Positions 4,198 to 38,951 of a stretch of DNA of 64,000 nt are shown piece after piece. The DNA comes from Schmidtea nova. Lineage: Eukaryota. The translations under genes and the position numbers were made by a program. How positions within the stretch are numbered: position 1 is the first letter of the stretch; every line of letters starts with the position of its first letter. Location of the stretch: assembly GCA_044892505.1 (NCBI GenBank), contig CM097884.1, positions 40,176,001 through 40,240,000 on the forward strand. Direction: 5' to 3'. The notes under the pieces are model-generated. The model did no database searches and was not told the DNA's origin. It saw only the letters and a program-made list of their open reading frames with translations.

Positions 4198-4200
4198 TTA

Positions 4201-4210
4201 CCCCCCATCC
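4201..4210 (-). promoter_or_regulatory. Polypurine tract
   Basis: GGATGGGGGG 3 nt before the 3' LTR on the minus strand. Confidence 0.7.
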
Positions 4211-4286
4211 AGTAACGCGGAGCGTTTTTCTTAAAAGAAAACAAAAAAAAGATTTTAGAGGTGTTAGTATTGGTGCCCGCTCTAAG

Positions 4287-10498: not shown

Positions 10499-10799
10499 AA
10501 TAAAATCGATTAGTAATAAGTTTTAATAAATTTGTTTAAAATATTTATTTTGTATTAATTTGTGCGCGGGTTAACCGCTTAACAATCTCTTTTAAACAAT
10601 GGGCAATAAAATATACAAATAATAAAATTTTTACACATTTAATAATTCTTTCGCATAATCCTAAACAATGTACAATAAAATTTACAAATAATAAAATTTT
10701 CACATGACTAACAACCTTTTTACAACTCCGATTCACACAATTTCGGAGGTACATAAAACACGCATGAACATCTATTTATGGTGTCCAAAGAACATTACA
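9182..10799 (-). repeat. 5' LTR (1618 bp), containing ~440 codons of ORF
   Basis: TGTAAT...ATATCA; direct repeat of 2580-4197. Confidence 0.95.
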
Positions 10800-12255: not shown

Positions 12256-13332
12256 TGTTCGGTTCGTATCAGTGGTTTACGACGAACACAGAAATATAAA
12301 TATATATTTGATACTTTAGTTTGATTATCGGACTCCAAACGATAATCCGCTTATTAATTATAAATAAATTATATGTTTTAGGTTGTGTGTAAAGAAAAAC
12401 AAGATCTAATTCCTTTTAATAATATGTATTGTGAAATATGTAAATCAATGTACAATATAATAAAATAGCTGCTAAGCAAAAGTTAGAGAATCGGTTATAC
12501 AAACCGTCCTAAGATGTTTAAGAACGAAAGCTGGACCTAAAAGGCTCAACAGCTCCGACTAAATGAAAGGACACAAGATGAGGGGTTTCCCTGTAGTTTA
12601 ACCGCGATAGTGACAACCCAGAATTGGTTGTCACTGTGACTTAATAATTTTCCCTTCTAATAATTTATTATTTAACGATTTTGCTGAAGGGGAAAAATAG
12701 TAATACAACTATTTCCCCGTGATCGATTTATAAGATTTAAAACAAAACTAGGAAAATTACCAGCTACTAAAGATTATTCCAATTTAGGGAAATTATCACG
12801 AACGAAATTCAAGCTAAGCTTCTTGTAATACTTCTGCCGTAAAATTAATTTCTCCAATTCACAAATTTGTCAAACTAAAATTCTAAAATTCACTTCGGTA
12901 AAATTTATGTTCTGTAAACACTTATGTTTCTCTCTCTACTTCTGTCAAAATTACTTTCTGTTTCAACTGATTTTGCAATCAGTTTATATACAAATTATTT
13001 TCTCTCATGTAGGTCTAGACGACCACCTATTACTAACTACGTGTAGGTCGAAATTGACCTTACAAAATATTACTTTTAAAGTAATTTATTATTACTATAT
13101 ATATCTTATTATTACTATTTAAATTTCTTATGTATTTATTTATTACTATATTTATTATATATTATTTAATTATTACTGTATTTAATCTATATTTATTTAT
13201 AGTAATTATTTATTTATTTTCTATTTATCTATCTATTTATAGTATTTTTTTTAATTACTATTTATATTTATTTATTTACTTATAATATTTAATTACAAAA
13301 ACCCCGAGATCCCTTGATCTCGAACCCTAACA
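12256..13332 (-). repeat. 3' LTR (1077 bp)
   Basis: Direct repeat of 26138-27214. Confidence 0.96.
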
Positions 13333-13334
13333 TG

Positions 13335-13344
13335 TCTTCCCCCT
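13335..13344 (-). promoter_or_regulatory. Polypurine tract
   Basis: AGGGGGAAGA 2 nt before the 3' LTR. Confidence 0.75.
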
Positions 13345-13627
13345 AACAAGATTTTCGTCCCGAAAATTAAAGCGGAAAAGACAAGAAGGTTCAGCAGCCA
13401 AAAATAAAAAAAATAAAACAACAACACATGCATATATACATAGAATGCACTTGGTCAAAATGAGTCTCATAAAACACATAATACATAATTAATGTTGATC
13501 ACAATCGATATCAAATAATAATTGTCTGTAAGCGTTGGATTGTTGATCACATAGCCGAAATGCTAATTGTTTGATTGATAGTTGTCATAGCTTATAGCTA
13601 GACCTTGAATTGAACGTAGCAGAAATG

Positions 13628-15592
13628 CTAGTTATCCTTCGCGAATAGGTTTTGAGCTGCTCTCTTGCGAATATGCGCTTGCTCGTTCTTGATGCGATCT
13701 TCCACTATATCTGGTCTATAGCTGACCACCAATGTTTCGCGTGTTTCGACTTCCTTATATACCAAAGACGAAATCACGTATGATTTTCCGTTGGCCTCCA
13801 ATACGCCATAGTAAGGGAAGTTTGAAACTGATGATTGGTGTACCGGTTTCCCGTCGTATTCTTTTATCCGAGGTACCCAATTTCTCTCTGGTCGCTGCCA
13901 AAAACTAGGGTCTTCATTGTCCAAATCCTGGGGTATCTTTGCTGAATTTCCCGTTCCAACGAAATCCCCTTCTCTTATAATAATAGGTTCGCCCTTAACC
14001 TCCGGAATCTGTTCCATATCGGGTGGGATGAATGCTGTTTCGATTAAATCTTTGTCTTCCGTCGAGATGGGATTTGGTACTTTCTTTTTGATCTTTAGAT
14101 CTTGTAACCTTACAACAGGTTCTTGACTTTTCTTTGGGGGTGACTTTTCTACTGAAGTCAATTTTTTAAAAGTCTTAGTAACTTTTTCCAAGAGCTTGTT
14201 CTCTTTCTTTGGTGGATTTTCTGGCACGATCTTTGTAATTGTACGGCTGTCTCCGTGTAAAGTTAAACGCATCTCTGTTTGCTCCTCACCCTCGCTTTCG
14301 CAGGTGGCGTAATCGTCTTCATCAGCTAAGGATATAGCTGGAGGGGATAGTGATTCTTCCTCAACTATCTTTTGCAATTTGGTTGATAATGGTTGTTCCT
14401 GGGGTAAGCTCTCAATAGCTTTCCTTTTACTCGTTTCTTGTGGCTGTATTGTATGAACCATTTTGACTTCTGATGTAATCGTCCCACTACGATTACCTGG
14501 GGTAATGTCATCTACCCAAACTTCTCTCAGTTTAAGGTAAATATTACGTGTCGTTTCCACGTCATTTTCCGTTTTCAGATCTGAACGGTTTAGTTCTTCT
14601 TTTTCGAGAATTGACTTTGATAAATACGCGAGTCGATAATGTCCGTTACATTTCTTTAGTTCTCTCGCTTCCAGGCATTTTGCTGCTCCTAGTTCTCTAA
14701 TGCCCAATACTCGTTGAGGGTGTAACTGGACTGCTTCCAAGAAATCGTTGACTTGGAGACCTATTAGAATTTTCCCATCACATAATTTTCTAATACGGTC
14801 TGCGCAATCCTCTCCATCAAATTGTCCGATGATTTCTTTTTCGGTCATACCATGCGCGTGCGATTGGTAATGTTTGACCTGGTTTCTGGGTGTAACCACC
14901 GTGTTTAGTATTAAATCACCACAGTAGTTTGCTATCGAAACAGCCACCAAAGCTGGCTTTAAATAATCTCGCAAAGTTGCGTAATGCGCTGCAACAAATA
15001 TTGACAATCTATCTTCTTGATTGGGGTGCAGATTCATCCGAACAAAGGATTTGAATGATTTGAGATCGTTCTCATTCACATTATAGGTCCAGGCAGGTTC
15101 ATTTTTCCACAATGATTGCACTGCCTTGCTAGGTTCCAAAATCTCTAATACCACAATAGTATTATATCCGTCACATTGGATGGAGATATTCTTTTCTCTG
15201 CCATCTCCGTTACTAATTTCTAGAGTTGATTCTGGTTGAAGTAGGATGGGTCCTGTGGCTCCTGCCATGAAGATTGTAAAGGGTTTATTGATCGCGTGAA
15301 TCAGGAGATGGTGAGTAAATGTTGATCTGTTAAATTCCGCCATGTGTTCAGTCAACCGGGTGTTCTCACGGCTGGTAATTGTGACTATGCACATTTGTCT
15401 CTTAGGCGATCCGAGAAACTTAAAATTGTTTGGGATGCCGGTGCAGTGCCCGTAATACCAATAGCGACGACCTTTCCGTGCTTCTGCGGATATCGCTTTT
15501 TCGATGTTTCGATAAATCAGTTTTTCCTTCTGTACTGTTTGCACATCGATAGTGCTATAACGCTGCTTGTATTGTGACACTTGATGCTTCAT
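13628..15592 (-). CDS. Accessory ORF2 with REX4/ISG20-like DEDDh exonuclease-fold domain (ExoI acidic residues absent); likely from a spliced mRNA
   Basis: ALVAVSIANYCGDLILNTVVTP..VKHY....HGM..KILIG..ENDVETTRNIY resembles REX4 motifs. A strong acceptor TTTTTCTTTCAG lies 2 nt before the ATG at 15592. Confidence 0.75.
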   Translation of the reverse strand: MKHQVSQYKQRYSTIDVQTVQKEKLIYRNIEKAISAEARKGRRYWYYGHCTGIPNNFKFLGSPKRQMCIVTITSRENTRLTEHMAEFNRSTFTHHLLIHAINKPFTIFMAGATGPILLQPESTLEISNGDGREKNISIQCDGYNTIVVLEILEPSKAVQSLWKNEPAWTYNVNENDLKSFKSFVRMNLHPNQEDRLSIFVAAHYATLRDYLKPALVAVSIANYCGDLILNTVVTPRNQVKHYQSHAHGMTEKEIIGQFDGEDCADRIRKLCDGKILIGLQVNDFLEAVQLHPQRVLGIRELGAAKCLEARELKKCNGHYRLAYLSKSILEKEELNRSDLKTENDVETTRNIYLKLREVWVDDITPGNRSGTITSEVKMVHTIQPQETSKRKAIESLPQEQPLSTKLQKIVEEESLSPPAISLADEDDYATCESEGEEQTEMRLTLHGDSRTITKIVPENPPKKENKLLEKVTKTFKKLTSVEKSPPKKSQEPVVRLQDLKIKKKVPNPISTEDKDLIETAFIPPDMEQIPEVKGEPIIIREGDFVGTGNSAKIPQDLDNEDPSFWQRPERNWVPRIKEYDGKPVHQSSVSNFPYYGVLEANGKSYVISSLVYKEVETRETLVVSYRPDIVEDRIKNEQAHIRKRAAQNLFAKDN

Positions 15593-15778
15593 ATCTGAAA
15601 GAAAAATAATTAACGTTAATATCAGATATACTGATAGGCCAATATTGGCTAAAAAGAAATGCATAAATCTCGATTTACGGGATCTACTTATGCTGTAAGT
15701 TAATGCTACTCGGAGCTCAACAAGATTATAGATTTTAATATATATATAAATACAAATATGCGATTTTATCTGTAATTG

Positions 15779-18700
15779 TCATAATCTCGTCATCATAATC
15801 CCATCAACCGACTCAATGGCCTGACTGAAGAATAGTTTCATCCAAACTCCCATTGCTATCAATGTAGTGATCATAGCTAATACTGCTGACGTAATAATCC
15901 ATACCCCAACGGGTAATTTTCCCAAGTGAGTAATGGGGTTTACTTCATTAACTTCACACTGACAACTTTTAATATAGCTTTCTGTTGATACTGTTGGTTT
16001 TACCATTTTCAATCCTTTCAATCTCTGCCATATTGCAGGATGAATGACGTAACTTTCTTTCCGTATCAATGATGTAACCGATTTCATTGTCGTCGATGAT
16101 TGTGGTAATTTCAAAGAGATAACTTCATAAAATACCTCATTCCATTCATCGACTCCTGGCTTTTGTTTATTATTCATATAAGTGATATGAGCTTCCCACT
16201 CCACTGAGCTGTTCCACTTGAGATTTTGTTTCTCAATATCTTCATTTAGCCACAATTCTTGTACTATTTCCTTGTCGGAATGGATTTCTATCTTTACTCT
16301 ATCCACTCCTTGTTTTGGTTGGCTGAAGGTAATCATACCTTGTTGGATATTTATTCTAACTTTCCTTTTGAAATCTGCTGTCTTCAACTTCCATTGTGAC
16401 TTTGAAAAATCTGACCATCGTCCAAACATAAAATGTTGAACAAGTATATCTAACAGATATTCCTTTTCTGCTCGTAAGTCCTTTATGACTTTCACTCTTG
16501 TGTTTGAATCCAATGTAAAATGGAAACAACGTCGTTCGCAAAACGAGAACTTGAATTTTGTATCATTTTCAGCTAATGATATTATCCTAAATTCCTGGAA
16601 AGATCTTCTAAATGCGAGATCTTGAATTTGTACCGCTGTTGGAACAAATGTCTTTACACAGGATATAAGGCAACTTATTATTACCAAAAACGTAACTGAT
16701 TTTGGCACGCCTCTTGATCGTAATGGATATCTGTCTGAGACTGGTTCTGACCCTTTATCCTCCTTTTTCTTAATCGGATCTTTCTCCGTGACCGCAACTT
16801 TCTTGCATCTGTTAGCATGTACCATTATTGGTTCAGCTTTTCTATTTGCTACTAATTGCAAGATTAAATTCGTGTCTGTGGTTCTCAAAACCTCATATGG
16901 TCCTTTGAAGTTTCTCATTAATTTAGGTGATAAGCCCTTTTTATTATAATGGCTTTCCAACATCACCTTGTCTCCAACTAACATGCCATGTCCTTTGGCT
17001 TTCTTATCATGATAATCTTTCGACGCTTCCTGACTGAATTTTATACTAAGACCTGCTTTTGTCCATGCTTCTTGCATTCTTTCTCTCATTTCCATGAGAT
17101 AATCCTCTTGGTCTAAATACTGCGTTGCTTTTGGGAAAAACAACAAGTCTATAGGCATTTTACTTTGCCTTAAATACATGAGATAGAACGGCGTTTGTCC
17201 CGTACCCTCATGAACAGCATTTCTGTATGCGAATAGGCATGATGGAATATGTATATCCCAATCCGTTTGCCCTGAATTTACGTATGATGCTAGCATATTT
17301 GCGAGCGTTCCGTTAAATCTCTCTACCAATCCGTCTGTTTGTGGATGGTATGGAGAGGTATTCAGTTTTAAAATGTCGAAATAATCATTTATTCCTTTTA
17401 GCAGATTACTCATGAAATCTGCTCCTCTATCTGTTAGTAGTTTTGTAGGTACTCCATACCTAAAAACAATTTGCTCTACGAAAATCCTGGCTATCGTATC
17501 GGCCTTGTGATTCGGTATCGGATAAGCCTCCGGCCATTTCGTCAAGTAATCGCAAAATACCAATATGTATTTGTTACCACTATTTGACTCTTTGAATGGC
17601 CCTAAAACATCCATTGCCGTCATTTCCATCGGTGTGGATGGTACTGGCATTGGTTTCATTGGCACATGCGGTTTCTTCCCCGTATTTCTCCTGGTGATAC
17701 AGATCTTACATGTCTGACACCATTCCTGTACGTCTTGTTTGATTGTCGGCCAGAAATATTTCTGCTTCAACCTTGACAATGTTTTCCTGGAAGACAAATG
17801 CCCTCCCAGTGCTCCATCATGATATTGTAACATCAAAGCTTCGCGATATTTCTTAGGGACCATTATGACATTATCCCTTACGTCTACATATTTGACTAAT
17901 CCTTCTTCTAGAATAAATTTGTCTCGATTTTTCTCCCAATATTTATTAAATTCCGTCGGTATGAACTTTGCTTCTAAAGCCTGTCTGATTTGGTTTATCT
18001 CTTCATCCGATTGTTGTGCTGCCATTAAATCCGCGAGTCTGTTTGCTTCTCTTGTAAGTGCGAAGATTGTTCCTTCTAATCTTCCTTCCTTAACGTCTTC
18101 TGCTTCATCACCCTGGTCCATTCGAGAAAATGCATCTGCATTCCCATTTTGGTGTCCTTTTCGGTAATGTATTTCGATGTCGTATGGCTGCAAGATCAAT
18201 GCCCATCTAACCAATTTTGATGTGTCCATAGTATGCTTTGTTAACCACTGTAATGGTCTATGATCCGTATACACAATGATCTTTCGACCCCATAAATATG
18301 TCCTGAATTGGTGTATAGCATACACAATTGCTAATGCTTCTAATTCGATAACTGCGTAATTCATTTCATGTGGTTTTAATCCTCTGCTAGCATACGCTAT
18401 GGCATATTCGTCTCCTAGGTCATCTCTTTGACCTAACACAGCACCAATACCCCGAGTGCTGGCGTCCGTCATGACCAAAAATTGTTTCTCAAAATCTGGA
18501 AACCGTAATATAGGAGGTTCCACGAGCATCCTCTTTAGCATATCAAATGCTTCCTGTTGTTCTTTTCCCCATACAAATTTGACATTTTTGCCCTCTAATT
18601 GTGTCAGAGGAAATGCTATTGCCGAAAAGTTCCTGATGAACTTTCTATAATATCCCACTAAGCCCAAAAACCCTTTTATATGTTTGACTGTCTTTGGCTC

Positions 18701-21700
18701 TGGAAAATTCTTTGCTTTCTCAACATTTGCTGGATCTGGTTTTACTCCATCCTTCGAGATAATGTGACCGACATAGACTACCTCTGATTCGGCCCATTTA
18801 CATTTCGATGGTTTTACCTTAAGATTTGCATTAATTAACCTTTTGAATACGTCCTCTAAATGTTCTAAATGTTTTTCCAAATCTGGAGAAAATACTATGA
18901 TGTCATCTATGTATACCATTGCATGATGAACATCCATTAACATTAGATTCATGGCTCTTTGAAACGTTGCCGGCGCTCCTGTGAGACCAAATGGCATTAC
19001 TGTATATTCGAAGTGTCCAAGGCTTGTAGAAAAAGCCGTAATTGGTATTGTCTCCTCTTTTAACTTGATTTGGTAAAATCCCTTCTGAGCATCCATCACT
19101 GAGAAATATTTTGAATTTCTCATGCGTCCGTAAATGTAATCCAGTAATGGTAATGGGTGACTATCCTTGCAAGTTGCTTCGTTTACCATTCGATAGTCGT
19201 TGCATAGTCGTACCGTTCCATCCTTTTTGGCCACCACTATCATTGGTGACTGGTATGGTGATTTACTATGCCTGATGATGTTATGTTTTAACATCAGTTT
19301 TACCTGCTTATCGACAGGTTCTTCCAAGCTAAACGGAATTCGATACGGTCTCAGTTTTATTGGTTTCGTGTTGTTAAGAACAATTTCATGTTCCAACAAG
19401 TTCGTCTTTCCCAGATCATATTCGTGCTTGGCGAATACTTGATCATATTTTCTTAATAACATGTTGACTTGGATATTCTCTCTTCGTGAAAGAGCTTTGC
19501 TATTTGCCGTTGGCGCATCATAGTACTCGATGTCTGATTCTCTATTTTCTGCCTTTATTGTCAGGACAGATCCTCCATTTGGTAATTGATCCGACTTTGA
19601 TACTCTCCCTACTCTTGTATCTGGGTACAATTTTAATGGTTTTATATCTAAATTGGCTACCCGAATTGGTATTCTGCCATTTTCAACTTTACCAATGCTA
19701 TGCGTAATTGGTAGATTATATTTTGCTGAGAACCTTTCATCTGGTTCGAATACAACTTCTCCTTCCCACTGTTCGCTAGTGGACACGAAACATACTGTTT
19801 CTGCTCTGGGTGGTATTATCATCGTATGGTCGATGAAAACTGTATCATCATTATAAACTTTTCTTTTCTTACCGATTGATCTAACTAACAATCCGGTAGC
19901 ACAGTCAAATACAACTCCTTTTAATCTTCTTAAAAGATCCATTCCTAGTAGACATTCTACTGGACAAGTTCTCATGACTATAATATCATGACGAAATTCT
20001 TGGTCACATAGCTTGATGTTACAAGCTAGAGTACCAATAATATTCAATGATGTGCCTGTAGCACCTGTTAGCGAAACTCTTGAGGTTTCCATTGATTCCA
20101 ATTCTTTTTGATTTAATAGTGTTGCCTCTATGATGGTGCCGTCTGCTCCTGAATCTATCACTGCATTAACTGTGTGTCTGTTTATTTTTATCTTTATCAT
20201 GGGTTTCTTATCCAAGTTCACCCCATTTGCCATCAAAATAGTAGCATGCGTTATCCCGATGGTATTTGCTCTGAATTTCTCTGCTTCATCTTGTTCGGTA
20301 TCACTCAATTTTGGATTATATTCCTTAAATTTAGCTTTTATTGCTTCTAACGACTCGATAGGATACAGTTTCCCTTCATTTTCTAACGATAATGATATGC
20401 TTTTACCAGTCTCTCGAGCATCTTTGTCGAGAATTTGTTGATGTTTAGAAATGTACATTTTGTTTCTTGGAGTGGTTAAAGCATAATTTTGTTTGCCCTC
20501 TCCTGATGTCTTTTGAAACTCTGGCGATTCCCCCTTTGGCGCTGTTGGCAAGCTTCTAAGATATGGTAATTGCATATATCTTGGGCTTCTTTTCAATCTA
20601 GGTGATGCTGTATTGATTGTAAATTTCTGGTCTGCACTATCGTATTCATCTTCTGAAATCATACTTTTGTCGAAAATCTGTTTTGTCGCTTCGTAAGGTG
20701 GTTGATAATCCCGATATTTCATTTTCCTTAACTGATGATTCGGTTTTTTATTGTAGTTTCTTTTTCGACTTCTACTTTGCCTCTGAACTGTATTAAGAGA
20801 GTCTCCATTACCTCCTCCTTCCGAATTGTTATCGTCCCGATAACTTGTATTACCCTCCATTTCGATTCCAATAATCTCGTGTTTTACCAAGCTTCTCTGT
20901 TTGATTGTCTTTATTTCTTTACGATGATGTTTAAACAATGCAAATTCCGCACACATAGGACACAATCCTAGTATCAACTTCCAAGACCATCCACCGATTT
21001 TGAATATACTGTATGTGGAGATTAATTGTGTTATTATTAACTTTAGAATTACGAATATTGCATATATTCCTGAGCAGCCTGCCACGAAAATACCAAAATT
21101 GGTAAACCTTCCCCATATTTTCATCATCACATTTTTAGCTGCTTCTTTATAATGATCTGGACCGAATAATAAATTGTAATCTGGTCTCATTTCGTTTGCT
21201 TGGTAAATTGTTCTTATGATTTCAGTGATACCTCTTTCTCTTACTTGAGGGAATAGCAATGTCTGTCTTGCCTCCTCAATGTCTGCTGAAGTGTAAATTC
21301 CTCCTTGTGATAATTCATCGAGTGATTTAAATTCCATGTTTTCCTCGAGTTTCGTGACTTCCAATGTTTCCACCTTTCTATTAGATGGTTTTCTGTCAGG
21401 TAATGAGATCCATCTATCATTTACCTTGTATAACGGTGATATTGCTGGATTGCAAATTGAAGGTTGAGGCTTTTGTTTTTCATCCAAAAGTCTCCTCGTA
21501 ACTGGCATTACAAATCGTATTTTGTTTTGATATGACACTGGTAATTCTAGAGTACATTCATTATACCGAGTTAATTGTACCTCTATGGGTTGACATTGAT
21601 AGCTGTATATAGCTTCCCCCATAATTCTGCCAAACATTCCATCTTCTAGCAACATAGGTGTCACTAGATCCGGATTCACAATTGATATCGCTAATCGATT

Positions 21701-24700
21701 TCGAACTATTTCGCGATTTAGTTTGCAATCATTGAGTATTACTTCCTGATACATTTCCTGCATTTGTCCTTGCAGATCATGATATAAATAATCTATTTTA
21801 TTATTTATATAGTTCGTGATTTTGATATCCTGGCTGTGAATATTCTTGGCTTTTTGGATGAATGTTTTTGACAAATATAATCCTTTATAGTTGGTCTCAT
21901 ACACCACTTTTCCGCATTTTGTCTTCTTATCTTTTCTGACAAATCTGATTGCATCTTTCTTATCTTCTGATACTAATACTAGAGGTGTGATTTCCTCACT
22001 AATATCCTCTTTTTGCTGTTTGTTGATCCTTTTCAACGTCTTTTCTTTATCCCAAATTCTTTCTCTTTTGGGTAAATCTCGATACTTTGTCCCGTTCAAC
22101 TTATGGAAATTAATTTTCTTTAGTAATGACAATTCGCAATGGTCTAGTATTTGATCGTATAATAATGTAATGACCCCTGTTCTGCAGCTTCCAAATTTCG
22201 CAAGGCACTGAGGGTGTGCCATTAATCTTCCTGATAATACATCGAACGTTCCTTCGTATTCTCTTAATTCGATTGAATAGTCCTCGATATCTACGACAAA
22301 ACTTACCAACTCCGATCCGCGAGTTTTCTTTCTTCCCGTACAGGTACCATCTGATCCGATTGATCCTCCTCGTGTAATGGTTACTCCCAGTGTTTTTCCT
22401 ACTTCCGCGGCGATGGTTACCTCGTTATCGATTCTTAAAGTACCTTTTCGAAAGGCGTCTAGACAATCCTCTGGCAATATGTTGACAGGTCTAGGTATTA
22501 GAGTGGCTGATAGAAAAGCTGTATAGCTGTGTGAACCACAATAATATTCAAACGTTGCTCTTTGGACTCTACATTCTCTTATCTTAGTTCTGAAGAATTC
22601 ACTTTCTTGGTAGACATAGTATTCGACCTTTTCTCCTGTTTGGACCTTTTCTGGATATGCCTCTTTGCACTCAATTGCATCTACGAGCGAATATATCCGA
22701 GCTAACTTTGGATCACTGCAATCAAACGCTGTCATTGTGTTTGTCTGTTTCATTATCCCCATCATTACTAAAAACATTAATATCATATTCGTCATATTCC
22801 CCATTCCTCCATTTTCGAGGTGGTTGTTATTCATAGCCTCTTCCACAAATTCATATCGTGGTTTATGTTTCTCCTCTTCCCAGAAATTATTTTCACTCAT
22901 CCACGTTCCGAGATAATGCTCCGTTATCTCCGTGATCTGGTCTATTTCTCGATTAATAAGCTTCTTCTCATTGCCTGCGCGGGCTAAAGCATCTTGAATC
23001 AACATAGATAATGCTGTCACTATTTTTCCTTTAGATAACCCATCTTGTATGAGTGTCTCTAACATACTCTGTATCTCGTTTTGCGGTACCCCTCTAGGTA
23101 ATCTCCTCATCGTCTTCGCGATTGACTGTGTTACTTTATCCACTTGAATTCCTTTAATCCGAGTAATCTGCCATTCTGGCTTTAATATTCCTATGATCTG
23201 TTTTAATCTCTTCCATGTCAGAGATTTTTCTGGTATATGTACACCTTCGTCTCTCATATCAACATCCCTGGCTATTCCTGACAGAGTTTTCATCTGAACC
23301 TGTTTAATGGTTTCTTGGTTTAATTGCTCCGTTGGTGGAGGTTTCATTTGATCTTTCCTAGGCCTTCCTCGCCTATCTTTCTTTGTCTGCCATGCTGGCC
23401 TGATAGTTTCTACCGCCTGAGAAGTTGAAGCTCCCACGTTAGTTTCCTCATTATTGAGTCTGATTTCCTCTTCTCCGTGATTATCGGCATCGATATCTAC
23501 ATTAAATGGTTGTGTTTCAACATTACCAGTGACCATTTCATCTGGTAACCGTAATGCTGACCATTGAGATTCAGGTGGCTCTACGGGAATGATTGCTACC
23601 GTTGTAGTTTCAAAAGGTAGACATCCCACATCTACTAAATATTCATCATCATCCACTTGTCCTCCATGAATCATAATCAAGAATATACCGGTAGTCTGCC
23701 CAGTATCTATTAAATCCTTTCTCAACGTTATCACTTTGCTAAAACAACGATATAACCTCGTCATGGGTTCTTTTCCCGATATTCGAATGTCTAAAGTTAT
23801 CATGCCTTGTCGATGTGCTTGATGACGTATTGCTGTTCCATTTTTTCTCATTAACATTTTTATTTCTGTTTGAAAAGAACTAGTTTCTTTTACTACAGGT
23901 AGTAATATAGGAATTATATTCTCCAATGATTCTACTGGTATGCGCAATACCAACATCCAGTCTAATATTTCCTTGATTGTTTCTCCATCCCTCGGAGATT
24001 TCTGCAGCTCTATCTTCAGACGTTGCTCTATTTGTTGGACCTCCTCCAACTGTGCAATTTCCATTTGTGTGAGTAGAAACACACTGTCTTGATCCACTAC
24101 TGGGACCGATATTCCTGTCAGTTTCGTTGTGAGTTTCGTTACCCTTCCTGGTAATACACCATTTTGTAGTAGTGTTTCCCCAACTACTAACTTTTCTCCA
24201 TATAAATAAAAATCATATCTATTATGTTTCAATTTCATCATTGTATCTGACAACTTATCTGTTCGACATCTTACATTCATGTCGATGTTAAACTCCTGCT
24301 CCTGAGGAAGTTTTATGTTTAAATGCGAATCCTGAAGATCCCATTCATGCTCCATTGCAGTTCCTATCTTTCGTAGGATTTTATGTATGTCGCTATTATA
24401 CCTTGGATCATCTTCGACCTGAGATATTAATTGTAATATCTTTCCAATTTCACTATTCTTGATATCACCTTGTGATAATTTCTCTAATTCTCTAGTCAGT
24501 CTCTGCTGATACTCATATCTGGAATCCACCAGTTTTAAACATTTTGCTAGGGTATCTGACCCTTTCTTGGCCTTTGTTTCCTTGAACAAAGCCTGGTCGA
24601 ACTCGCTCAGTATGGTACTCATACTGGGTTCGTCATCATTATCAGAATTTGTCTCTGATTCTATTACCTCATGATTCTCGCTGCTGGAATCCATGGGTTC

Positions 24701-26056
24701 ACTATTTCCTTGCTCATCTGTGTAAGCATCATGATTTTTCTCAGCTGAAATCATCAAAACTGTTCCTTGCCCAACTGTGTGAGCATCATCGCTTTCCTCA
24801 ATGGGATTCATTATAACTGTTCCTCGCCCATCCATGTGAGCATGATTTTTCTCAGCTGAAATCATAAAAACTGTCTCTTGCCCAACTGTGTGAGTCTCAT
24901 TTATTTCTTCAATTTTATTCATCAAAACTGTTCCTCGCTCATCTGTGTGAGCATGATTTTTCTCAGCTGAAATCATAAAAACTGTATCATCTCGATCCAT
25001 TAGCCGTGCTAATCGATTTTTCTCCTCCTGGATTTCCATTTCCAGTTGTTGCAAATACGTCAATTCTTTATCGTGATTGACCATGAACGTAGTTTTCGGC
25101 TTGCTGACATTACCACTATTGGTAATCCTACTATTCGTATTATTACTCTGATTTTGAGGACACGACCTCAGAATATGCCCGAATTTTCCACATCCGTGAC
25201 ATTTTATCTTCCCTGATGAATTCACATCATCCCTTTTAATATTAAAATTCCCATTCGTTGGGAGATTCCTAACTCTACAAACGGAAGCAACATGCCCTCT
25301 GCGTTTGCATTTATCACACTGCAAGTTCGTGACTCTACAGTTCTCAACACTATGATTATTCATACCACATTTAGTACACTGAATACCCCTACGAGTATCA
25401 GCTACCTTCTTACTGTGGCAATCTTTTGATATGTGCCCTTTCTTATGGCAGTTAAAACATTCAATTGCTGGCTTCTCATTATTTACCATAAATGATGTAG
25501 CTTTTTCTAAGCTGCTTTCGATTACGACAGCTTTTCTTGTTAATTCCCAAAAATCATCTCCCGTGTGGAGAATCAATGCATTTCTCATTACATTTGTGAA
25601 TCCAGCTAATAATTGGTCTTTAACCATAGCTTTAGTTGCATCATTCCAGGTAGTTCTGAGCCCAAATGCTCTTTCTGCTAATAACAATAATTGATAGGAA
25701 AATTCTCCTACATGTTCATTTGCATTCTGCTTCCTGTGATAAAATTGTTGTCGGAAAATTCTACTTGAATCTCCCGGTAATATTCTAGCCGTTAGTGATT
25801 CTCTCATCTTTTCCCATGTACCTGGTTTATCTGCTGCTGGTAACGCCATAATATCATTGTAATTTTCCCTTGCCATACCCTTAAGGTAAATTGGCAGTCT
25901 TTGTATCATTATTGCATCTGGATACCCATAGGCCTTTGCCATCTGATAATACTCTGACATAAACTCCGGAAATTCCCCTGGATCTCCGCTAAATGCCTTG
26001 ACAGGTAAAGCGGGATATCTAGCAAAAACATTATTCTCTTCAGCCATGTCCTCCAC
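15779..26056 (-). CDS. gag-pol: 3425-aa polyprotein: Gag (CA, 4 CCHC), repeats, 2x(helical+Ubl), AT-hook, chuvirus/gB-like glycoprotein, protease, RT, RNase H, integrase, second membrane protein
   Basis: Four CCHC knuckles (~25160-25460), RGRPRK, hydrophobic signal then AFDC (~22720), TM (~20930-21100), VIDSGAD, YIDDII, MTDAS, HHCC, DDE core, YPLRSR plus signal, C-terminal TM. Confidence 0.93.
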   Translation of the reverse strand: MEDMAEENNVFARYPALPVKAFSGDPGEFPEFMSEYYQMAKAYGYPDAIMIQRLPIYLKGMARENYNDIMALPAADKPGTWEKMRESLTARILPGDSSRIFRQQFYHRKQNANEHVGEFSYQLLLLAERAFGLRTTWNDATKAMVKDQLLAGFTNVMRNALILHTGDDFWELTRKAVVIESSLEKATSFMVNNEKPAIECFNCHKKGHISKDCHSKKVADTRRGIQCTKCGMNNHSVENCRVTNLQCDKCKRRGHVASVCRVRNLPTNGNFNIKRDDVNSSGKIKCHGCGKFGHILRSCPQNQSNNTNSRITNSGNVSKPKTTFMVNHDKELTYLQQLEMEIQEEKNRLARLMDRDDTVFMISAEKNHAHTDERGTVLMNKIEEINETHTVGQETVFMISAEKNHAHMDGRGTVIMNPIEESDDAHTVGQGTVLMISAEKNHDAYTDEQGNSEPMDSSSENHEVIESETNSDNDDEPSMSTILSEFDQALFKETKAKKGSDTLAKCLKLVDSRYEYQQRLTRELEKLSQGDIKNSEIGKILQLISQVEDDPRYNSDIHKILRKIGTAMEHEWDLQDSHLNIKLPQEQEFNIDMNVRCRTDKLSDTMMKLKHNRYDFYLYGEKLVVGETLLQNGVLPGRVTKLTTKLTGISVPVVDQDSVFLLTQMEIAQLEEVQQIEQRLKIELQKSPRDGETIKEILDWMLVLRIPVESLENIIPILLPVVKETSSFQTEIKMLMRKNGTAIRHQAHRQGMITLDIRISGKEPMTRLYRCFSKVITLRKDLIDTGQTTGIFLIMIHGGQVDDDEYLVDVGCLPFETTTVAIIPVEPPESQWSALRLPDEMVTGNVETQPFNVDIDADNHGEEEIRLNNEETNVGASTSQAVETIRPAWQTKKDRRGRPRKDQMKPPPTEQLNQETIKQVQMKTLSGIARDVDMRDEGVHIPEKSLTWKRLKQIIGILKPEWQITRIKGIQVDKVTQSIAKTMRRLPRGVPQNEIQSMLETLIQDGLSKGKIVTALSMLIQDALARAGNEKKLINREIDQITEITEHYLGTWMSENNFWEEEKHKPRYEFVEEAMNNNHLENGGMGNMTNMILMFLVMMGIMKQTNTMTAFDCSDPKLARIYSLVDAIECKEAYPEKVQTGEKVEYYVYQESEFFRTKIRECRVQRATFEYYCGSHSYTAFLSATLIPRPVNILPEDCLDAFRKGTLRIDNEVTIAAEVGKTLGVTITRGGSIGSDGTCTGRKKTRGSELVSFVVDIEDYSIELREYEGTFDVLSGRLMAHPQCLAKFGSCRTGVITLLYDQILDHCELSLLKKINFHKLNGTKYRDLPKRERIWDKEKTLKRINKQQKEDISEEITPLVLVSEDKKDAIRFVRKDKKTKCGKVVYETNYKGLYLSKTFIQKAKNIHSQDIKITNYINNKIDYLYHDLQGQMQEMYQEVILNDCKLNREIVRNRLAISIVNPDLVTPMLLEDGMFGRIMGEAIYSYQCQPIEVQLTRYNECTLELPVSYQNKIRFVMPVTRRLLDEKQKPQPSICNPAISPLYKVNDRWISLPDRKPSNRKVETLEVTKLEENMEFKSLDELSQGGIYTSADIEEARQTLLFPQVRERGITEIIRTIYQANEMRPDYNLLFGPDHYKEAAKNVMMKIWGRFTNFGIFVAGCSGIYAIFVILKLIITQLISTYSIFKIGGWSWKLILGLCPMCAEFALFKHHRKEIKTIKQRSLVKHEIIGIEMEGNTSYRDDNNSEGGGNGDSLNTVQRQSRSRKRNYNKKPNHQLRKMKYRDYQPPYEATKQIFDKSMISEDEYDSADQKFTINTASPRLKRSPRYMQLPYLRSLPTAPKGESPEFQKTSGEGKQNYALTTPRNKMYISKHQQILDKDARETGKSISLSLENEGKLYPIESLEAIKAKFKEYNPKLSDTEQDEAEKFRANTIGITHATILMANGVNLDKKPMIKIKINRHTVNAVIDSGADGTIIEATLLNQKELESMETSRVSLTGATGTSLNIIGTLACNIKLCDQEFRHDIIVMRTCPVECLLGMDLLRRLKGVVFDCATGLLVRSIGKKRKVYNDDTVFIDHTMIIPPRAETVCFVSTSEQWEGEVVFEPDERFSAKYNLPITHSIGKVENGRIPIRVANLDIKPLKLYPDTRVGRVSKSDQLPNGGSVLTIKAENRESDIEYYDAPTANSKALSRRENIQVNMLLRKYDQVFAKHEYDLGKTNLLEHEIVLNNTKPIKLRPYRIPFSLEEPVDKQVKLMLKHNIIRHSKSPYQSPMIVVAKKDGTVRLCNDYRMVNEATCKDSHPLPLLDYIYGRMRNSKYFSVMDAQKGFYQIKLKEETIPITAFSTSLGHFEYTVMPFGLTGAPATFQRAMNLMLMDVHHAMVYIDDIIVFSPDLEKHLEHLEDVFKRLINANLKVKPSKCKWAESEVVYVGHIISKDGVKPDPANVEKAKNFPEPKTVKHIKGFLGLVGYYRKFIRNFSAIAFPLTQLEGKNVKFVWGKEQQEAFDMLKRMLVEPPILRFPDFEKQFLVMTDASTRGIGAVLGQRDDLGDEYAIAYASRGLKPHEMNYAVIELEALAIVYAIHQFRTYLWGRKIIVYTDHRPLQWLTKHTMDTSKLVRWALILQPYDIEIHYRKGHQNGNADAFSRMDQGDEAEDVKEGRLEGTIFALTREANRLADLMAAQQSDEEINQIRQALEAKFIPTEFNKYWEKNRDKFILEEGLVKYVDVRDNVIMVPKKYREALMLQYHDGALGGHLSSRKTLSRLKQKYFWPTIKQDVQEWCQTCKICITRRNTGKKPHVPMKPMPVPSTPMEMTAMDVLGPFKESNSGNKYILVFCDYLTKWPEAYPIPNHKADTIARIFVEQIVFRYGVPTKLLTDRGADFMSNLLKGINDYFDILKLNTSPYHPQTDGLVERFNGTLANMLASYVNSGQTDWDIHIPSCLFAYRNAVHEGTGQTPFYLMYLRQSKMPIDLLFFPKATQYLDQEDYLMEMRERMQEAWTKAGLSIKFSQEASKDYHDKKAKGHGMLVGDKVMLESHYNKKGLSPKLMRNFKGPYEVLRTTDTNLILQLVANRKAEPIMVHANRCKKVAVTEKDPIKKKEDKGSEPVSDRYPLRSRGVPKSVTFLVIISCLISCVKTFVPTAVQIQDLAFRRSFQEFRIISLAENDTKFKFSFCERRCFHFTLDSNTRVKVIKDLRAEKEYLLDILVQHFMFGRWSDFSKSQWKLKTADFKRKVRINIQQGMITFSQPKQGVDRVKIEIHSDKEIVQELWLNEDIEKQNLKWNSSVEWEAHITYMNNKQKPGVDEWNEVFYEVISLKLPQSSTTMKSVTSLIRKESYVIHPAIWQRLKGLKMVKPTVSTESYIKSCQCEVNEVNPITHLGKLPVGVWIITSAVLAMITTLIAMGVWMKLFFSQAIESVDGIMMTRL
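24715..24995 (-). repeat. In-frame 111-bp tandem repeat (MISAEKNH units)
   Basis: ctcagctgaaatcat recurs at ~24740, ~24851 and ~24962. Confidence 0.85.
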
Positions 26057-26116
26057 AACTTTTGTCTTTTTAGGAGCTATTTTGTTTATAACAATATGCC
26101 CACTGATAATAATTGT

Positions 26117-26134
26117 ATCACGTCGGGCTCACCA
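26117..26134 (-). promoter_or_regulatory. Primer-binding site, tRNA-Trp type (18 nt)
   Basis: Plus strand ATCACGTCGGGCTCACCA matches the eukaryotic tRNA-Trp 3' end ATCACGTCGGGGTCACCA at 17/18. Confidence 0.85.
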
Positions 26135-26137
26135 AAA

Positions 26138-27214
26138 TGTTCGGTTCGTATCAGTGGTTTACGACGAACACAGAAATATAAATATATATTTGATACTTTA
26201 GTTTGATTATCGGACTCCAAACGATAATCCGCTTATTAATTATAAATAAATTATATGTTTTAGGTTGTGTGTAAAGAAAAACAAGATCTAATTCCTTTTA
26301 ATAATATGTATTGTGAAATATGTAAATCAATGTACAATATAATAAAATAGCTGCTAAGCAAAAGTTAGAGAATCGGTTATACAAACCGTCCTAAGATGTT
26401 TAAGAACGAAAGCTGGACCTAAAAGGCTCAACAGCTCCGACTAAATGAAAGGACACAAGATGAGGGGTTTCCCTGTAGTTTAACCGCGATAGTGACAACC
26501 CAGAATTGGTTGTCACTGTGACTTAATAATTTTCCCTTCTAATAATTTATTATTTAACGATTTTGCTGAAGGGGAAAAATAGTAATACAACTATTTCCCC
26601 GTGATCGATTTATAAGATTTAAAACAAAACTAGGAAAATTACCAGCTACTAAAGATTATTCCAATTTAGGGAAATTATCACGAACGAAATTCAAGCTAAG
26701 CTTCTTGTAATACTTCTGCCGTAAAATTAATTTCTCCAATTCACAAATTTGTCAAACTAAAATTCTAAAATTCACTTCGGTAAAATTTATGTTCTGTAAA
26801 CACTTATGTTTCTCTCTCTACTTCTGTCAAAATTACTTTCTGTTTCAACTGATTTTGCAATCAGTTTATATACAAATTATTTTCTCTCATGTAGGTCTAG
26901 ACGACCACCTATTACTAACTACGTGTAGGTCGAAATTGACCTTACAAAATATTACTTTTAAAGTAATTTATTATTACTATATATATCTTATTATTACTAT
27001 TTAAATTTCTTATGTATTTATTTATTACTATATTTATTATATATTATTTAATTATTACTGTATTTAATCTATATTTATTTATAGTAATTATTTATTTATT
27101 TTCTATTTATCTATCTATTTATAGTATTTTTTTTAATTACTATTTATATTTATTTATTTACTTATAATATTTAATTACAAAAACCCCGAGATCCCTTGAT
27201 CTCGAACCCTAACA
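26138..27214 (-). repeat. 5' LTR (1077 bp)
   Basis: Direct repeat of 12256-13332. Confidence 0.96.
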
Positions 27215-27218: not shown

Positions 27219-28833
27219 TATAAAGTCATCTTTGATGTTAAAGTTGGATTTTTGAAAATTTTCGCAAGTAACATAATTAATTGCAGCATCTAGCTCTGCT
27301 TCCAACGAAACTGGTGCATCCGTGTTCAAATCTACATGTTCTGGTGAAGATGAAGGTGATATAGATGAAGAAGATTCAAAAAGTCTAGCAAACAGATTAG
27401 ATGCAAATTCCAAAACAATTTTTGATGGTTTTATAGAGTTATTGGTGAGACATGCCAGAGTATCAATAATGGTAGAGTTTTCTCGTTCTATCATCCGTCG
27501 TTCGATATTTAATTTTAATATACTACAGATCACGTCATTACATTCATTCAATTTGTTGTACAGAAAATTCATCGCTCCCTTTGCTGTTAATAAATTGGCG
27601 TCTTGTCTCCGCCATTGTTTCAACAGCTAATGTTAATGGTTTTATTGCATTCATTAAGCTGGACAATTTTTCGAAATCTATTCCAGATACTAGGTACAGT
27701 GCATTTTATTCGATGAGCGTGTTTTGAATTGGAATTCGAACTCTGAGTAGTTTTTCTAACATAGGATGAATAGAATTCCACCTGTGTTTAACATCCAGTT
27801 GAAGTTCTAGTTCCTGCCCAATTTCATCGATAATTTTCTTTTGTAAAATTGAATTTCGAACACTAGATTTTTTCAAAAACTTAATCAAAATCCGCACGTT
27901 CTTCAGATTTTTTTGTATGTCGACATCTTCATCATCTGCGAATTCTTCTTCATTAACATCATCATCATCGAAAAATTCATTGTCTTGGAAGTCGTCATCA
28001 TCTTCTTCTTCTATAATGTCAACATCATTCGATTCAAAAACTTTCTTTTTATAAAATGTTTCAACTACCGCCAAATGCAGCCCGTGACATAAACATAACT
28101 GTGATTCAGATGGACAATCTCTCCCATACTTCACCATTACGCTGGCACCATCATTTGTAGTACGAACGATGTCGTTTTGGAACGACAAATTAAACAACTC
28201 CAAAGGCTTGGTTACAATTTCTAACACTACAGCTGCAGTACACGAACCAGTAGCTCTCACAAAACCTAGATTGTGGCGATTTCCATTATTTCCATGTACA
28301 TTAATATTAATAAAGTGACGATTTCGTGCACTTACCCACTCATCAAAGGTTATACTAAACTTACCACCATCATTTTTAATTGTTGTTAATTTTTTTATTA
28401 CCTCTTGTTTTCTATTTTCGAATTCAGTATGAATAAGGCGCATAACACTGTTTTCACTTTTTGGTAGGTTATATCCTCTGTCTACAAAAGATTGTCTGAT
28501 AAACTTGGAATTAGTAATTGCACGAATTGTTTTTCCGTCTTCAGCAGCTAATCTTGAAACAATCTCACTTAAACTTTGCCGTTTAACAAAATCCATCATC
28601 GTATTTCCTTTGATTTTCTTGAAGTTTTGCTCTTGCTCCCCCAAAACGGAATCATCATTATCCCGTTTACAATGGATTTTGTGTACCAGTTTCAGATGGT
28701 TTAGCATACCACCTGTGCTTCCATTACTATTTGAAATAAAAACCATACACTTTAAACACTGAGCTTTGGCAACTTTTTTATTGGTAGAAGGAATTTTTTT
28801 TAAATATTCCCAAACAGGAGCTGATGGTGCCAT
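27219..28833 (-). pseudogene. hAT transposase (BED finger, catalytic core) with premature stop at 27706 and frameshift near 27620
   Basis: VWEY..C..C..H..H BED finger, SITFDEW, TTNDGASV, CLCHGLHL, LDVKHRWNS, RQDANLLTA. A possible 66-nt 5' intron lies at 28837-28902. Confidence 0.88.
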
Positions 28834-29349
28834 GGGCTAAATAGTAGTACAATATAAATTTAATACAAGTTTTACGGTGAAAAAGAAATTAATTATAATT
28901 ACCTTTGATTTTTTTCAATTCTTTGATTTGAAAGCTTTACTAACAATTTCGCAATAACAAATTTTATCGATTTTTTATTCTATTTAAAATTTTATTCTAT
29001 ACATAATTTAAAATAATTTTCACTATCCGATAATCGCGAGTATATTTGAGCGGATACCGAATACGGATTTTTGTCTGCAAATTCGCGGATATCGGATACA
29101 GATAATCCGAACCGTCAAACTCTACTCTTAAAACAAAAAAAACAAACATTAATTCAACAACATTTATTACTACAGATAAATCAAATCAATACACAAAACA
29201 ATTCAGTCATTAATACACAGAAAATTCAATTATTGTTATTCATCGTATTGAGTTTCGTCACGGTCGCTCCTTGGATGGTATTTGATGTTGCCTTAACCCT
29301 TTCGTCGGCAAGCATCTGTTTCAACTGTAAGCGCCTTTGTGCATGGTAT

Positions 29350-30540
29350 TTTCTTTGGGCTTGTATTTATTGGGTCAGTATTTTATTTATTTGGTCAGTA
29401 TTTTTTTTAATAATTGGTCGGTATTTTATTAAATAAAATATCAGTATAAAATAATATTTTGGTCGGTATAAATAATTAAGTGTCAGTATATTATCCTGGC
29501 TGATAACAGTATAAATAATAAATATTAATAAAATTAATTACCTTCTTAAATTTTGAATTTTATTCTAATTTATGGCTTGTATTTATTGGGTCAGTATTAT
29601 TTGGTATTATTTNNNNNNNNNNNNNNNNNNNNNNNNNNNNNNNNNNNNNNNNNNNNNNNNNNNNNNNNNNNNNNNNNNNNNNNNNNNNNNNNNNNNNNNN
29701 NNNNNNNNNNNNNNNNNNNNNNNNNNNNNNNNNNNNNNNNNNNNNNNNNNNNNNNNNNNNNNNNNNNNNNNNNNNNNNNNNNNNNNNNNNNNNNNNNNNN
29801 NNNNNNNNNNNNNNNNNNNNNNNNNNNNNNNNNNNNNNNNNNNNNNNNNNNNNNNNNNNNNNNNNNNNNNNNNNNNNNNNNNNNNNNNNNNNNNNNNNNN
29901 NNNNNNNNNNNNNNNNNNNNNNNNNNNNNNNNNNNNNNNNNNNNNNNNNNNNNNNNNNNNNNNNNNNNNNNNNNNNNNNNNNNNNNNNNNNNNNNNNNNN
30001 NNNNNNNNNNNNNNNNNNNNNNNNNNNNNNNNNNNNNNNNNNNNNNNNNNNNNNNNNNNNNNNNNNNNNNNNNNNNNNNAATATACTGACACTTAATTAT
30101 TTATTAAATATTTATAATTATTATTAATTATTATTAATTATTATTAATTATTATTAATTATTTATAATTATTAAAAATACTGACCAAATAAATAAACCCC
30201 ATCATTTTATTTTATACTGATATTTTATTTAATAAAATACCGACCAATTATTAAAAAAAATACTGACCAAATAAATAAACCCCTTAAATACTGACCAATT
30301 ATTAAAAAAAATACTGACCAAATAAATAAACCCCTTTTGGCTGACACTTAATTATTTATTAAATATTTATAATTATTATTAATTATTATTAATTATTATT
30401 AATTATTATTAATTATTTATAATTATTAAAAATACTGACCAAATAAATAAACCCCATCATTTTATTTTATACTGATATTTTATTTAATAAAATACCGACC
30501 AATTATTAAAAAAAATACTGACCAAATAAATAAACCCCTT
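29350..30540. repeat. AT-rich modular inverted/tandem repeat (AATACTGACC sub-units) flanking an assembly gap
   Basis: Parts of 29380-29492 are the reverse complement of 30080-30104 and 30205-30280; 30086 and 30341 begin two tandem copies. Confidence 0.75.
29613..30079. other. Assembly gap (467 N); the three ORF-track entries spanning it are artefacts
   Basis: Run of N. Confidence 0.99.
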
Positions 30541-33530: not shown

Positions 33531-33585
33531 TTCCTTTTCGCTTTTTTATATATATTTTAATTAGATGGAATATATTATATATATA

Positions 33586-34890
33586 CAGGGTGTTTTTTTA
33601 AAAATGCAATAGTAATTTTTTATTGATAATTTCCTTATATAATAGTATTATGAATATCGTTTTTTTGAAAATGCAATAGATAATTATAAATAGAAAAAAT
33701 AAAGTCTATTTTATGTTTACGGTTGAGGAAAAGATTCAAATTGTAAAATGGAGGAGTGGCAATCTAAGCTTTTCGCAGATACAAAATGAATTCATGAGAA
33801 AATTTACAGGACGCCCCGTGCCAAATATTTCAACCATATCAAGAATACTTGATAAATTTACAACTGGGGGTTGCATTAAAAGCGAGCACGCAACCCGAAC
33901 TAGAATTGAAACTGTTTTGACACCTTCGAAACAAACAGAAATTATTGGATATATTAATTCGAATAACAGATTGTCGACACAGGCCATAGCAACGCTCTCA
34001 AACGTCAGTAAATCGTCTGTTTATAAGACCCTGACCAAAAATGGTTTCAAATCATTCCACTTTTCACTAATCACCAGGAATTACTTGATCGAGATGAAGA
34101 GAAAAGAAAAGTTTTCTGCCAGGATATGTTTTCTAAATTGGAGTCAGACAATAATTTTGCCAAAAATATTCTATTTACCGACGAATCAACATTTACTTTA
34201 AACGATGAAATAAATCATCAGAATTGTAGATATTGGAGCTCCGTAAATCTACATCGCTTTCTTCCTACAAACAATCAAAATCAAGCAAAGTTAAATGTAT
34301 GGGCTGGGTTGATAAATGAATCGATAGTTGGACCGTTTTATATTAATGGGAATTTAAATGGTGATAAATATCTGCGTTTATTGGAAAATGATATTTTACC
34401 CGCATTGCGTGAAATGAATTTATATGAAACAGTCTGGTTTCAACAAGATGGGGCGCCTCCACATTACGCAATTGATGTTAGGCGGTACTTAAATGAAAAT
34501 TTTAGTGGCCGGTGGATTGGACGAGGAGGAACAATGAGCTGGCCTGCAAGATCACCTGATCTTACCCCAATGGATTTCTTTTATTGGGGTTTTTTGAAAG
34601 ATAATGTATATTTTGAACGGTCTGAAAGTCTTGTTTCTCTAAGAAATAAAATCGATCAAGTTTCGTTGACTATTACTACAGGTATGATGAGAAATGTTTT
34701 GGAGGGGTTTAAAAATCGAGTGCGAATATTTTTCGAACAAAATGGAGGTATTTTCGAAAACCTTTTATGAGTAAATGAATAGTGATTGGGATTTTACTTT
34801 TTGGTATTAATAAACCAGTTGGATCTATTTAATTAATAAGTATTTAATTATATATTAAATTGAATATTGCGTGTTAAAAAAAACACCCTG
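33586..34890 (+). mobile_element. Tc1/mariner transposon, DD41D (rosa/Visitor) type, 1305 bp
   Basis: TIRs CAGGGTGTTTTTTT, TA duplication, ILFTDE / QQDGAPPH / SPDLTPMD with 41 residues between D2 and D3. Confidence 0.93.
33713..34770 (+). pseudogene. DD41D transposase with one frameshift near 34065
   Basis: ORFs 33713-34201 and 34126-34770 join via HQELLDRDEEKRKVFC. Confidence 0.88.
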
Positions 34891-38938: not shown

Positions 38939-38951
38939 ACTACCAATATAA

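Follow-up and report, generated by a model that had tools for sequence, protein, structure and literature searches.

The stretch analyzed here (hereafter the window) comprises 64,000 nucleotides (nt) of the Schmidtea nova assembly GCA_044892505.1, contig CM097884.1, positions 40,176,001 to 40,240,000, and all coordinates below are counted within it. An intact Ty3/gypsy long terminal repeat (LTR) element of 14,959 bp occupies positions 12256–27214 on the minus strand. Both LTRs are 1077 bp long, run from TG to CA and are mutually identical, and a 4-bp target-site duplication (TSD; ATAT) flanks them on the outside. The features of the element, in its own 5' to 3' order, are the following:

26138–27214, minus: 5' LTR, 1077 bp, TG...CA (sequence comparison)
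26118–26135, minus: primer-binding site (PBS), immediately after the 5' LTR (sequence)
15779–26047, minus: open reading frame 1 (ORF1) polyprotein, 3422 amino acids (aa), first ATG to TGA (open frame)
25160–26047, minus: Gag, with a capsid-like region and four zinc knuckles of the CCHC type (Retrotrans_gag E = 0.006, below cut-off; CCHC motifs)
23594–24295, minus: two possible ubiquitin-like domains with a helical segment between them (profile matches below cut-off)
22874–23161, minus: possible Bcl-2-like helical domain (Pfam Bcl-2 E = 0.011, below cut-off)
22736–22795, minus: putative internal signal sequence, hydrophobic segment 1 (hydropathy; stronger equivalents in relatives)
21104–22735, minus: Env ectodomain, class III (gB/chuvirus-G type), 14 Cys (Pfam, AlphaFold2, Foldseek, pN/pS)
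21023–21103, minus: Env transmembrane (TM) anchor, segment 2 (hydropathy)
20930–20989, minus: weaker hydrophobic stretch after the Env anchor (hydropathy)
19916–20212, minus: aspartic protease (PR), VIDSG (RVP E = 6e-12)
18182–19231, minus: reverse transcriptase (RT), YIDD, and RNase H (RVT_1 E = 5e-33, RT_RNaseH E = 1.5e-36)
17099–17860, minus: integrase (IN), H2C2 zinc finger and core (Integrase_H2C2, rve)
16643–16702, minus: second signal-like hydrophobic segment, segment 3 (hydropathy)
15917–16642, minus: post-integrase ectodomain, predicted as two tandem fibronectin type III (FN3)-like beta-sandwiches and a stalk (structure prediction)
15833–15916, minus: C-terminal TM segment, segment 4 (hydropathy)
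15773–15784, minus: ORF1 stop in the context TTA TGA CAA TTA, CARYYA type (sequence)
15593–15778, minus: stop-free, in-frame spacer of 62 codons that includes a hydrophobic segment and closes with the splice-acceptor-like TTAAT...TTTCAG directly ahead of the ORF2 Met (sequence)
13628–15592, minus: ORF2, with an N-terminal domain, a DEDDh/ISG20-like domain at about 14609–15103 and a charged tail (frame and profile match)
13333–13349, minus: polypurine tract (PPT)-like stretch preceding the 3' LTR (sequence)
12256–13332, minus: 3' LTR, same sequence as the 5' LTR (sequence comparison)

The element has the traits of the Metaviridae—i.e. TG...CA LTRs, a TSD in the 4–6 bp range, a PBS and a PPT-like tract—and its Pol domains run PR-RT-RNase H-IN with gypsy-type RNase H and integrase profiles (Pfam). 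The PBS resembles the 3' end of a tRNA-Trp, and the 6 loci that were scanned contain no tRNA gene. A 15-mer of the PBS occurs at 3064 places in the genome, compared with 0 for its reversed control, so many LTR families use one primer. In an RT tree composed of unlabelled relatives and the neighbouring element, the window element joins its sister family C (100/100), and family D comes next with weaker support. Family D is a second young Gag-Env-Pol family of the same genome (e.g. L059–L064), with many open frames of 3427–3442 aa and an Env that is 44% identical.

Searching the genome with a 2.7-kb query of Env plus flank yields 411 candidates, and all 40 matches that were scored are full length, so that at least 40 copies of the element exist at 98–100% identity. 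Among the 92 Env protein matches listed, 27 lie in open frames of at least 3389 aa with no stop inside the match (hand count). LTR pairs could be parsed in 5 of 10 further copies; these pairs are clean, differ by 0–2 substitutions and are bounded by distinct 4-bp TSDs of their own. Because of these many near-identical copies, clean LTR pairs and distinct TSDs, the family is real, young and recently transposed. Since the region is rich in repeats, with nested and adjacent elements, one might suspect that the long frame is an assembly chimera of separate elements. This is next to impossible, and is refuted by dozens of independent loci that carry the same continuous frame between their own TSDs. 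Specifically, the 40 scored copies all carry the same Env-plus-flank stretch, and four public runs, from a single study, have coverage in every one of the element's 30 bins; it is no assembly artefact.

From stop to stop, a single open frame covers 15779–26128, which is 3449 codons. An earlier note on this DNA, made from the letters alone, had described a 3425-aa ORF with Env between Gag and protease; that length holds when counting from an upstream GTG, and the first ATG (26047) gives 3422 aa. The order and the shared frame of Gag, Env and Pol are borne out by the frame and by Pfam—i.e. Gag, two putative ubiquitin-like domains, a putative Bcl-2-like domain, signal, class III Env, TM, PR, RT, RNase H, IN—but Env adjoins neither neighbour, with about 790 aa between the last zinc knuckle and the Env signal and about 270 aa between the Env TM and PR. 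The four CCHC knuckles lie at aa 224–323. Farther along, the first ubiquitin-like site resembles ubiquilin/IQUB (E = 0.014–0.035) and the second ISG15 (E = 0.07), both in profile comparisons with the PDB and below cut-off. The corresponding sites in family D give equally tentative Pfam matches to ubiquitin (E = 0.0013, below cut-off) and Bcl-2 (E = 0.037, below cut-off), and in L058, a related metagenome locus, Pfam shows no Bcl-2 match. Within ORF1, 24673–24951 is made of 111-nt tandem units, and in some copies the frame is 3411 aa long, which would fit the absence of one unit.

The motifs that the earlier note cited are all in place in this one minus-strand frame, with VIDSG inside the protease. 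The hydrophobic stretch MILMFLVMMGIM is found at aa 1115–1126 and is followed by TAFDC, CRV and YYCGSHS, and FGIFVAGCSGIYAIFVILKLII is found at aa 1678–1699. The ectodomain between them is Cys-rich as claimed (14 Cys), and measures about 545 aa rather than about 600. Upstream of PR, RT, RNase H and IN, it matches Pfam Monjiviricetes_fusion (PF24664) at E = 5e-89. Its AlphaFold2 model (monomer, 98-row alignment) has a mean pLDDT of 89.8, and Foldseek aligns this model with chuvirus-like G (E = 1e-37, TM-score up to 0.71) and with herpesvirus gB (E = 4e-14, TM-score about 0.4). The suggested class III homology is thus confirmed by profile and fold, and Env is, by its modelled structure, a class III fusion glycoprotein of the gB/chuvirus-G fold class. 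No furin-type R-x-K/R-R site is found in the ectodomain.

Env is under strong purifying selection. Across 11 close copies, there are 48 synonymous and 11 nonsynonymous distinct changes, with a ratio of nonsynonymous to synonymous polymorphism (pN/pS) of 0.061; for shared changes the value is 0.013, and for PR-RT it is 0.094. These copies are the best DNA matches and are thus biased towards young ones. The best fold and Pfam matches of Env are Monjiviricetes glycoproteins, as one would expect of a glycoprotein that was captured recently from a chuvirus-like RNA virus and lies idle, or of an inserted viral fossil that is in frame by chance. We regard this as highly improbable: the nearest relatives of Env are other polyproteins that carry it in frame before PR and RT (29–42% identity), ahead of stand-alone G proteins (about 25%), and it keeps the same in-frame position across families with 26–63% Env identity. 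The in-frame Env of these relatives and the purifying selection effectively refute an idle capture or fossil, and for the same reasons Env reads as an old, maintained part of the element rather than a fresh fossil.

By hydropathy, ORF1 has four segments. The first, at aa 1112–1131, is signal-like and is followed by the Env anchor at about 1676–1702, another signal-like segment at 3143–3162 and a C-terminal TM at 3405–3432. The number of strong hydrophobic segments before Pol is even (signal plus one TM), so that PR-RT-IN would be left in the cytosol, the placement on which the earlier proposal of a processed polytopic polyprotein depends. On this hydropathy, we infer that Gag and Pol are cytosolic and that two domains are lumenal. 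The four-segment layout recurs in relatives P0002, P0006 and P0014 (26–37% Env identity), in family D and, with extra segments, in L058. In P0001–P0004, P0013 and L058, two or three aspartic-protease-like domains follow Env, and P0002 has one more after IN. L058 also has an extra TM-domain-TM module between its protease copies, in which an FN3-like motif can be seen by eye. The full Env-Pol polyprotein P0006 stands in the database as a hypothetical protein, assigned to a metagenome-assembled genome of Flavobacteriaceae, likely as a result of animal DNA in the bin.

Two hydrophobic segments after IN, and an in-frame ORF2 behind the stop, go beyond what the earlier note described. The post-IN domain is under purifying selection (pN/pS 0.13, 12 copies), and its signal-ectodomain-TM arrangement is kept in the same position in distant relatives. 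The predicted FN3-like protein is a candidate attachment or immune-modulating partner of Env.

The stop codon of ORF1 is followed directly by a CAR-YYA hexamer and by an in-frame downstream ORF. CAR-YYA is the readthrough signal of tobamoviruses such as tobacco mosaic virus (PMC2194720, PMC4132726), and after UGA it gives about 15% readthrough in a mammalian reporter (PMC4132726). Among the 20 copies of the window family that were fetched, 19 could be parsed; all 19 carry TTA TGA CAA TTA, and in 16 of them the spacer is open and in frame. Sister families B and C (Env 55–66%, Pol about 70% identity) keep the same stop context, and two sister-family copies carry a changed stop codon. In family C, the spacer is open and in frame in 8 of 10 parsed copies and comes in two lengths, 102 and 105 nt. 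Shuffling the letters puts the chance of an open, in-frame spacer at 0.002 for the window and at about 0.015 for family C. Based on this context, we lean towards programmed readthrough of TGA-CAA-TTA into ORF2.

Alternatively, ORF2 might be made only from spliced, trans-spliced or reinitiated RNA through the acceptor-like site, the stop context being kept for a reason at the RNA level. This is the less probable account, though one with a fair amount in its favour. Just ahead of the ORF2 start, the window, families B, C and D, and L017 and L058 all have an acceptor-like YAG, whose frame relative to ORF2 varies; families that lack the CARYYA context still possess ORF2; the spacer has few changes of either kind; and a soluble ORF2 suits a nuclease fold better. 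What splicing alone leaves unexplained is that two clades have spacers of 62 and 34–35 codons that are both in frame and stop-free behind the same 12-nt context, while their flanking proteins are about 20% and about 40% alike. In addition, a strict pattern search of the 5' LTR and leader finds no splice donor. Both routes to ORF2, readthrough and splicing, may operate. Spliced subgenomic RNAs, if made, would break the 1:1:1 ratio of Gag, Env and Pol that was proposed earlier.

ORF2 encodes 654 aa from the Met at 15592, or 716 codons when counted in the same frame from the ORF1 stop. Its middle part matches ISG20L2 (7yw5, E = 5e-5), and distant homologues match RNase_T. The DEDDh motifs—i.e. 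the ExoI acidic pair and the ExoIII His/Asp—are kept in the separate ORF2 of family D (L060) and in L058. In alignment, the catalytic residues are not kept in the window ORF2 or in sister rows L014, L017 and L031, and the loss of these canonical residues speaks against an active DEDDh exonuclease in the window. ORF2 is under purifying selection, with pN/pS values of 0.06–0.12, the exonuclease-like region having 0.06 (12 copies). Because the catalytic residues are lost and yet this region is so constrained, a noncatalytic, RNA-binding role fits, and in the window clade ORF2 is more likely to be a pseudo-nuclease that binds RNA than an enzyme. At L016 and L017, an ORF2 homologue (45–48% identical) is found, and the 17 kb upstream of it contain nothing that matches Pol or Env; these loci are either deleted or nonautonomous derivatives, or an ORF2 inside another element.

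Taken together, the window holds a young Ty3/gypsy (Metaviridae) Gag-Env-Pol element of the flatworm kind, whose four-pass polyprotein would probably yield Gag, a gB-type fusogen, Pol and an FN3-like surface protein. The polyprotein would likely be threaded through the endoplasmic reticulum membrane four times, with Gag staying in the cytosol. Segment 1 would act as an internal signal, and signal peptidase would free Env near TAFDC; segment 2 would stop transfer, leaving PR-RT-RNase H-IN in the cytosol to be released by PR; segment 3 would be a second signal, and segment 4 would anchor the FN3-like protein. Less certainly, a minority of ribosomes would continue past TGA-CAA-TTA, so that ORF2 is appended after one more hydrophobic segment, and spliced RNA, via the acceptor-like site before the ORF2 Met, would probably give soluble ORF2. 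The products would most likely build enveloped particles that pass between cells. It is also conceivable, if rather unlikely, that Env works without free infectious particles—i.e. in cell-to-cell transfer, intracellular budding or the blocking of superinfection—and that intracellular retrotransposition is the main way in which the element spreads. The purifying selection on Env tells us that it matters and is silent on its purpose, and the lack of a furin-type site fits such a role; set against this are the retention of a full gB-type ectodomain with signal and anchor, and a second predicted surface protein.

Several points weigh against the four-pass, readthrough-expressing element. It is known from DNA sequence and models, and its topology from hydropathy. 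Segment 1 is weak in the window copy (19-residue mean of 1.47, acidic N-terminal flank), and the weaker hydrophobic stretch after the Env TM, which is conserved, may form a re-entrant helix or a second TM helix. Confidence in the FN3 model is middling, and the ubiquitin-like and Bcl-2-like matches all fall below their cut-offs. Regarding the stop codon, the spacer is in frame in 1 of 6 family B copies, the others being out of frame or unresolved, several with length changes in a TA repeat, and the window spacer has a pN/pS of 0.37 (7 changes) that is not significant. In family D, ORF1 terminates at TAG TGA, and no CARYYA hexamer is present in L058, so readthrough is not general. Lastly, with a single extra TM, ORF2 made by readthrough would end up in the lumen, an odd place for a nuclease fold.

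The earlier note presented the gene order as unusual, and this novelty falls away because the order has been published for the planarian Burro, there in one frame (PMC6431247), and for GAG-ENV-POL elements of nematodes, bryozoans and flatworms (PMC13524379). Specifically, GAG-ENV-POL elements with a gB-type Env are reported in Nematoda, Bryozoa and Platyhelminthes (PMC13524379; Chary & Hayashi, eLife 2026). Among these, Smed_errantivirus_4 and other flatworm gB-type errantiviruses share with the window element the Ty3/gypsy Pol, the gB-type Env, the Gag-Env-Pol order and multiple copies. Three traits of gB-type errantiviruses are present here—i.e. Env between Gag and Pol, a class III ectodomain between a signal/TM and a TM, and near-identical intact copies—and, judged by eye, the Env cysteines line up with the flatworm C1a rows of that paper. 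Env domains I–II match those of Smed_errantivirus_4 at about 151 of 230 ungapped positions (about 65% identity, hand count), and the window element is a different family member. The main text of PMC13524379, as distinct from its figures and most supplements, contains none of the words 'fibronectin', 'readthrough', 'read-through', 'splic', 'exonuclease', 'single ORF' or 'in-frame'.

The Burro/GYPSM1 polyprotein has Gag, CCHC knuckles, ubiquitin/SUMO-like and BCL2-like domains, and Env in frame before PR-RT-RNase H-IN, and is called the first example of an env that lies in frame between gag and pol (Arkhipova & Yushenova 2019; PMC6431247). The window element shares the in-frame Env, and the ubiquitin-like and Bcl-2-like cargo upstream shows up in it as tentative candidates, with matches below cut-off. 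By contrast, Burro exceeds 30 kb with an ORF1 of about 4900–5100 aa, compared with 14,959 bp and 3422 aa here, and we reject identity with it on size. The four CCHC knuckles of the window element also count among the differences, and the ankyrin, BIR and MATH cargo of Burro has no Pfam match in the window ORF1 or ORF2, which is not an exclusion. An FN3-like membrane module, a DEDDh ORF and readthrough all go unmentioned in the Burro section of PMC6431247. The comparison with Anakin BEL/Pao elements made earlier is apt for the glycoprotein, which belongs to the same family (PF24664; Dezordi 2020, PMC7642597), but not for the backbone, which is Ty3/gypsy; given the gypsy-type RT_RNaseH and integrase, and no BEL/Pao-specific Pfam match, identity with Anakin is rejected.

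Other known systems resemble single parts of the element. Nematode endogenous retroviruses (NERV) reportedly have a continuous gag-env-pro-pol ORF with a glycoprotein of RNA-virus type, and are said to be restricted to nematodes and to carry other accessory ORFs. Their flipped Env-Pol order is noted in PMC13524379, citing Sacco 2022. In rotifers, the gypsy-like LTR elements Juno and Vesta have an ORF3 downstream of pol that, like ORF2, encodes a DEDD-superfamily exonuclease (Rodriguez 2017, PMC5408684). As described there, it is of the DEDDy/RNase D type with intact residues, mostly in elements without a bona fide env, whereas ORF2 is of the ISG20/RNase T (DEDDh) type, stands beside an Env and is degenerate in the window clade. 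SIRE1 similarly joins a downstream ORF to pol across an in-frame stop (PMC2194720), but it is a plant copia element that reads through into an env-like ORF, while the downstream ORF here is nuclease-like and its readthrough is predicted.

With the Gag-Env-Pol order already known, three features set this new member of the flatworm gB-type group apart: a second membrane protein, predicted to be FN3-like and under selection, a probable pseudo-nuclease specific to its clade, and programmed readthrough, which is likely. A literature search, with Repbase, figures and most supplements outside it, found no earlier description of an FN3 module, a DEDDh ORF or readthrough in such elements. Gag-Env-Pol elements thus seem to carry more membrane machinery than annotated, and their accessory nuclease-fold gene appears to differ in catalytic state and expression mode between clades in one genome. 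Fusogens of the herpesvirus gB type need partner glycoproteins. As one candidate partner is present here, the compact element could offer a small system for testing how class III fusogens are directed to their targets and triggered. More speculatively, and unlikely as a whole, labour might be divided as in herpesviruses: a gB-type fusogen would be paired with a separate FN3-like glycoprotein for attachment or triggering, cut in equal amounts from the same four-pass polyprotein, and a dead nuclease, tuned by readthrough, would shield the RNA from host silencing. If true, this would be a two-glycoprotein, complex retrovirus-like agent of invertebrates. Since the family is both young and abundant, the host can be searched directly for particles, transcripts and small-RNA responses.

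The remainder of the window is also rich in mobile elements. On the minus strand, 2578–10799 is a second young gypsy element, with 1620-bp repeats that are 99.9% identical and Pol at 4287–7784; a long open frame crosses its LTR, taking up 468 codons in one LTR and, in the other, running on into a Gag of DUF7041 type. A BED zinc finger and a weak DUF659 match (27706–28836, minus), a short way upstream of the main element's 5' LTR, mark a hAT-like transposase fragment. An AT-rich repeat cluster at 29382–30540 has inverted arms around a stretch of N (29613–30079), and short inverted repeats at 33572–34904 surround HTH and DDE_3 frames of a Tc1/mariner-like transposon with a split frame. Long inverted repeats bound about 12.7 kb at 35494–48173, with a fragment of a protein-primed DNA polymerase B and an endonuclease VII match (45457–46272); this looks like a decayed Polinton-type element. 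Lastly, 58534–59247 is an exact tandem duplication of about 355 bp.

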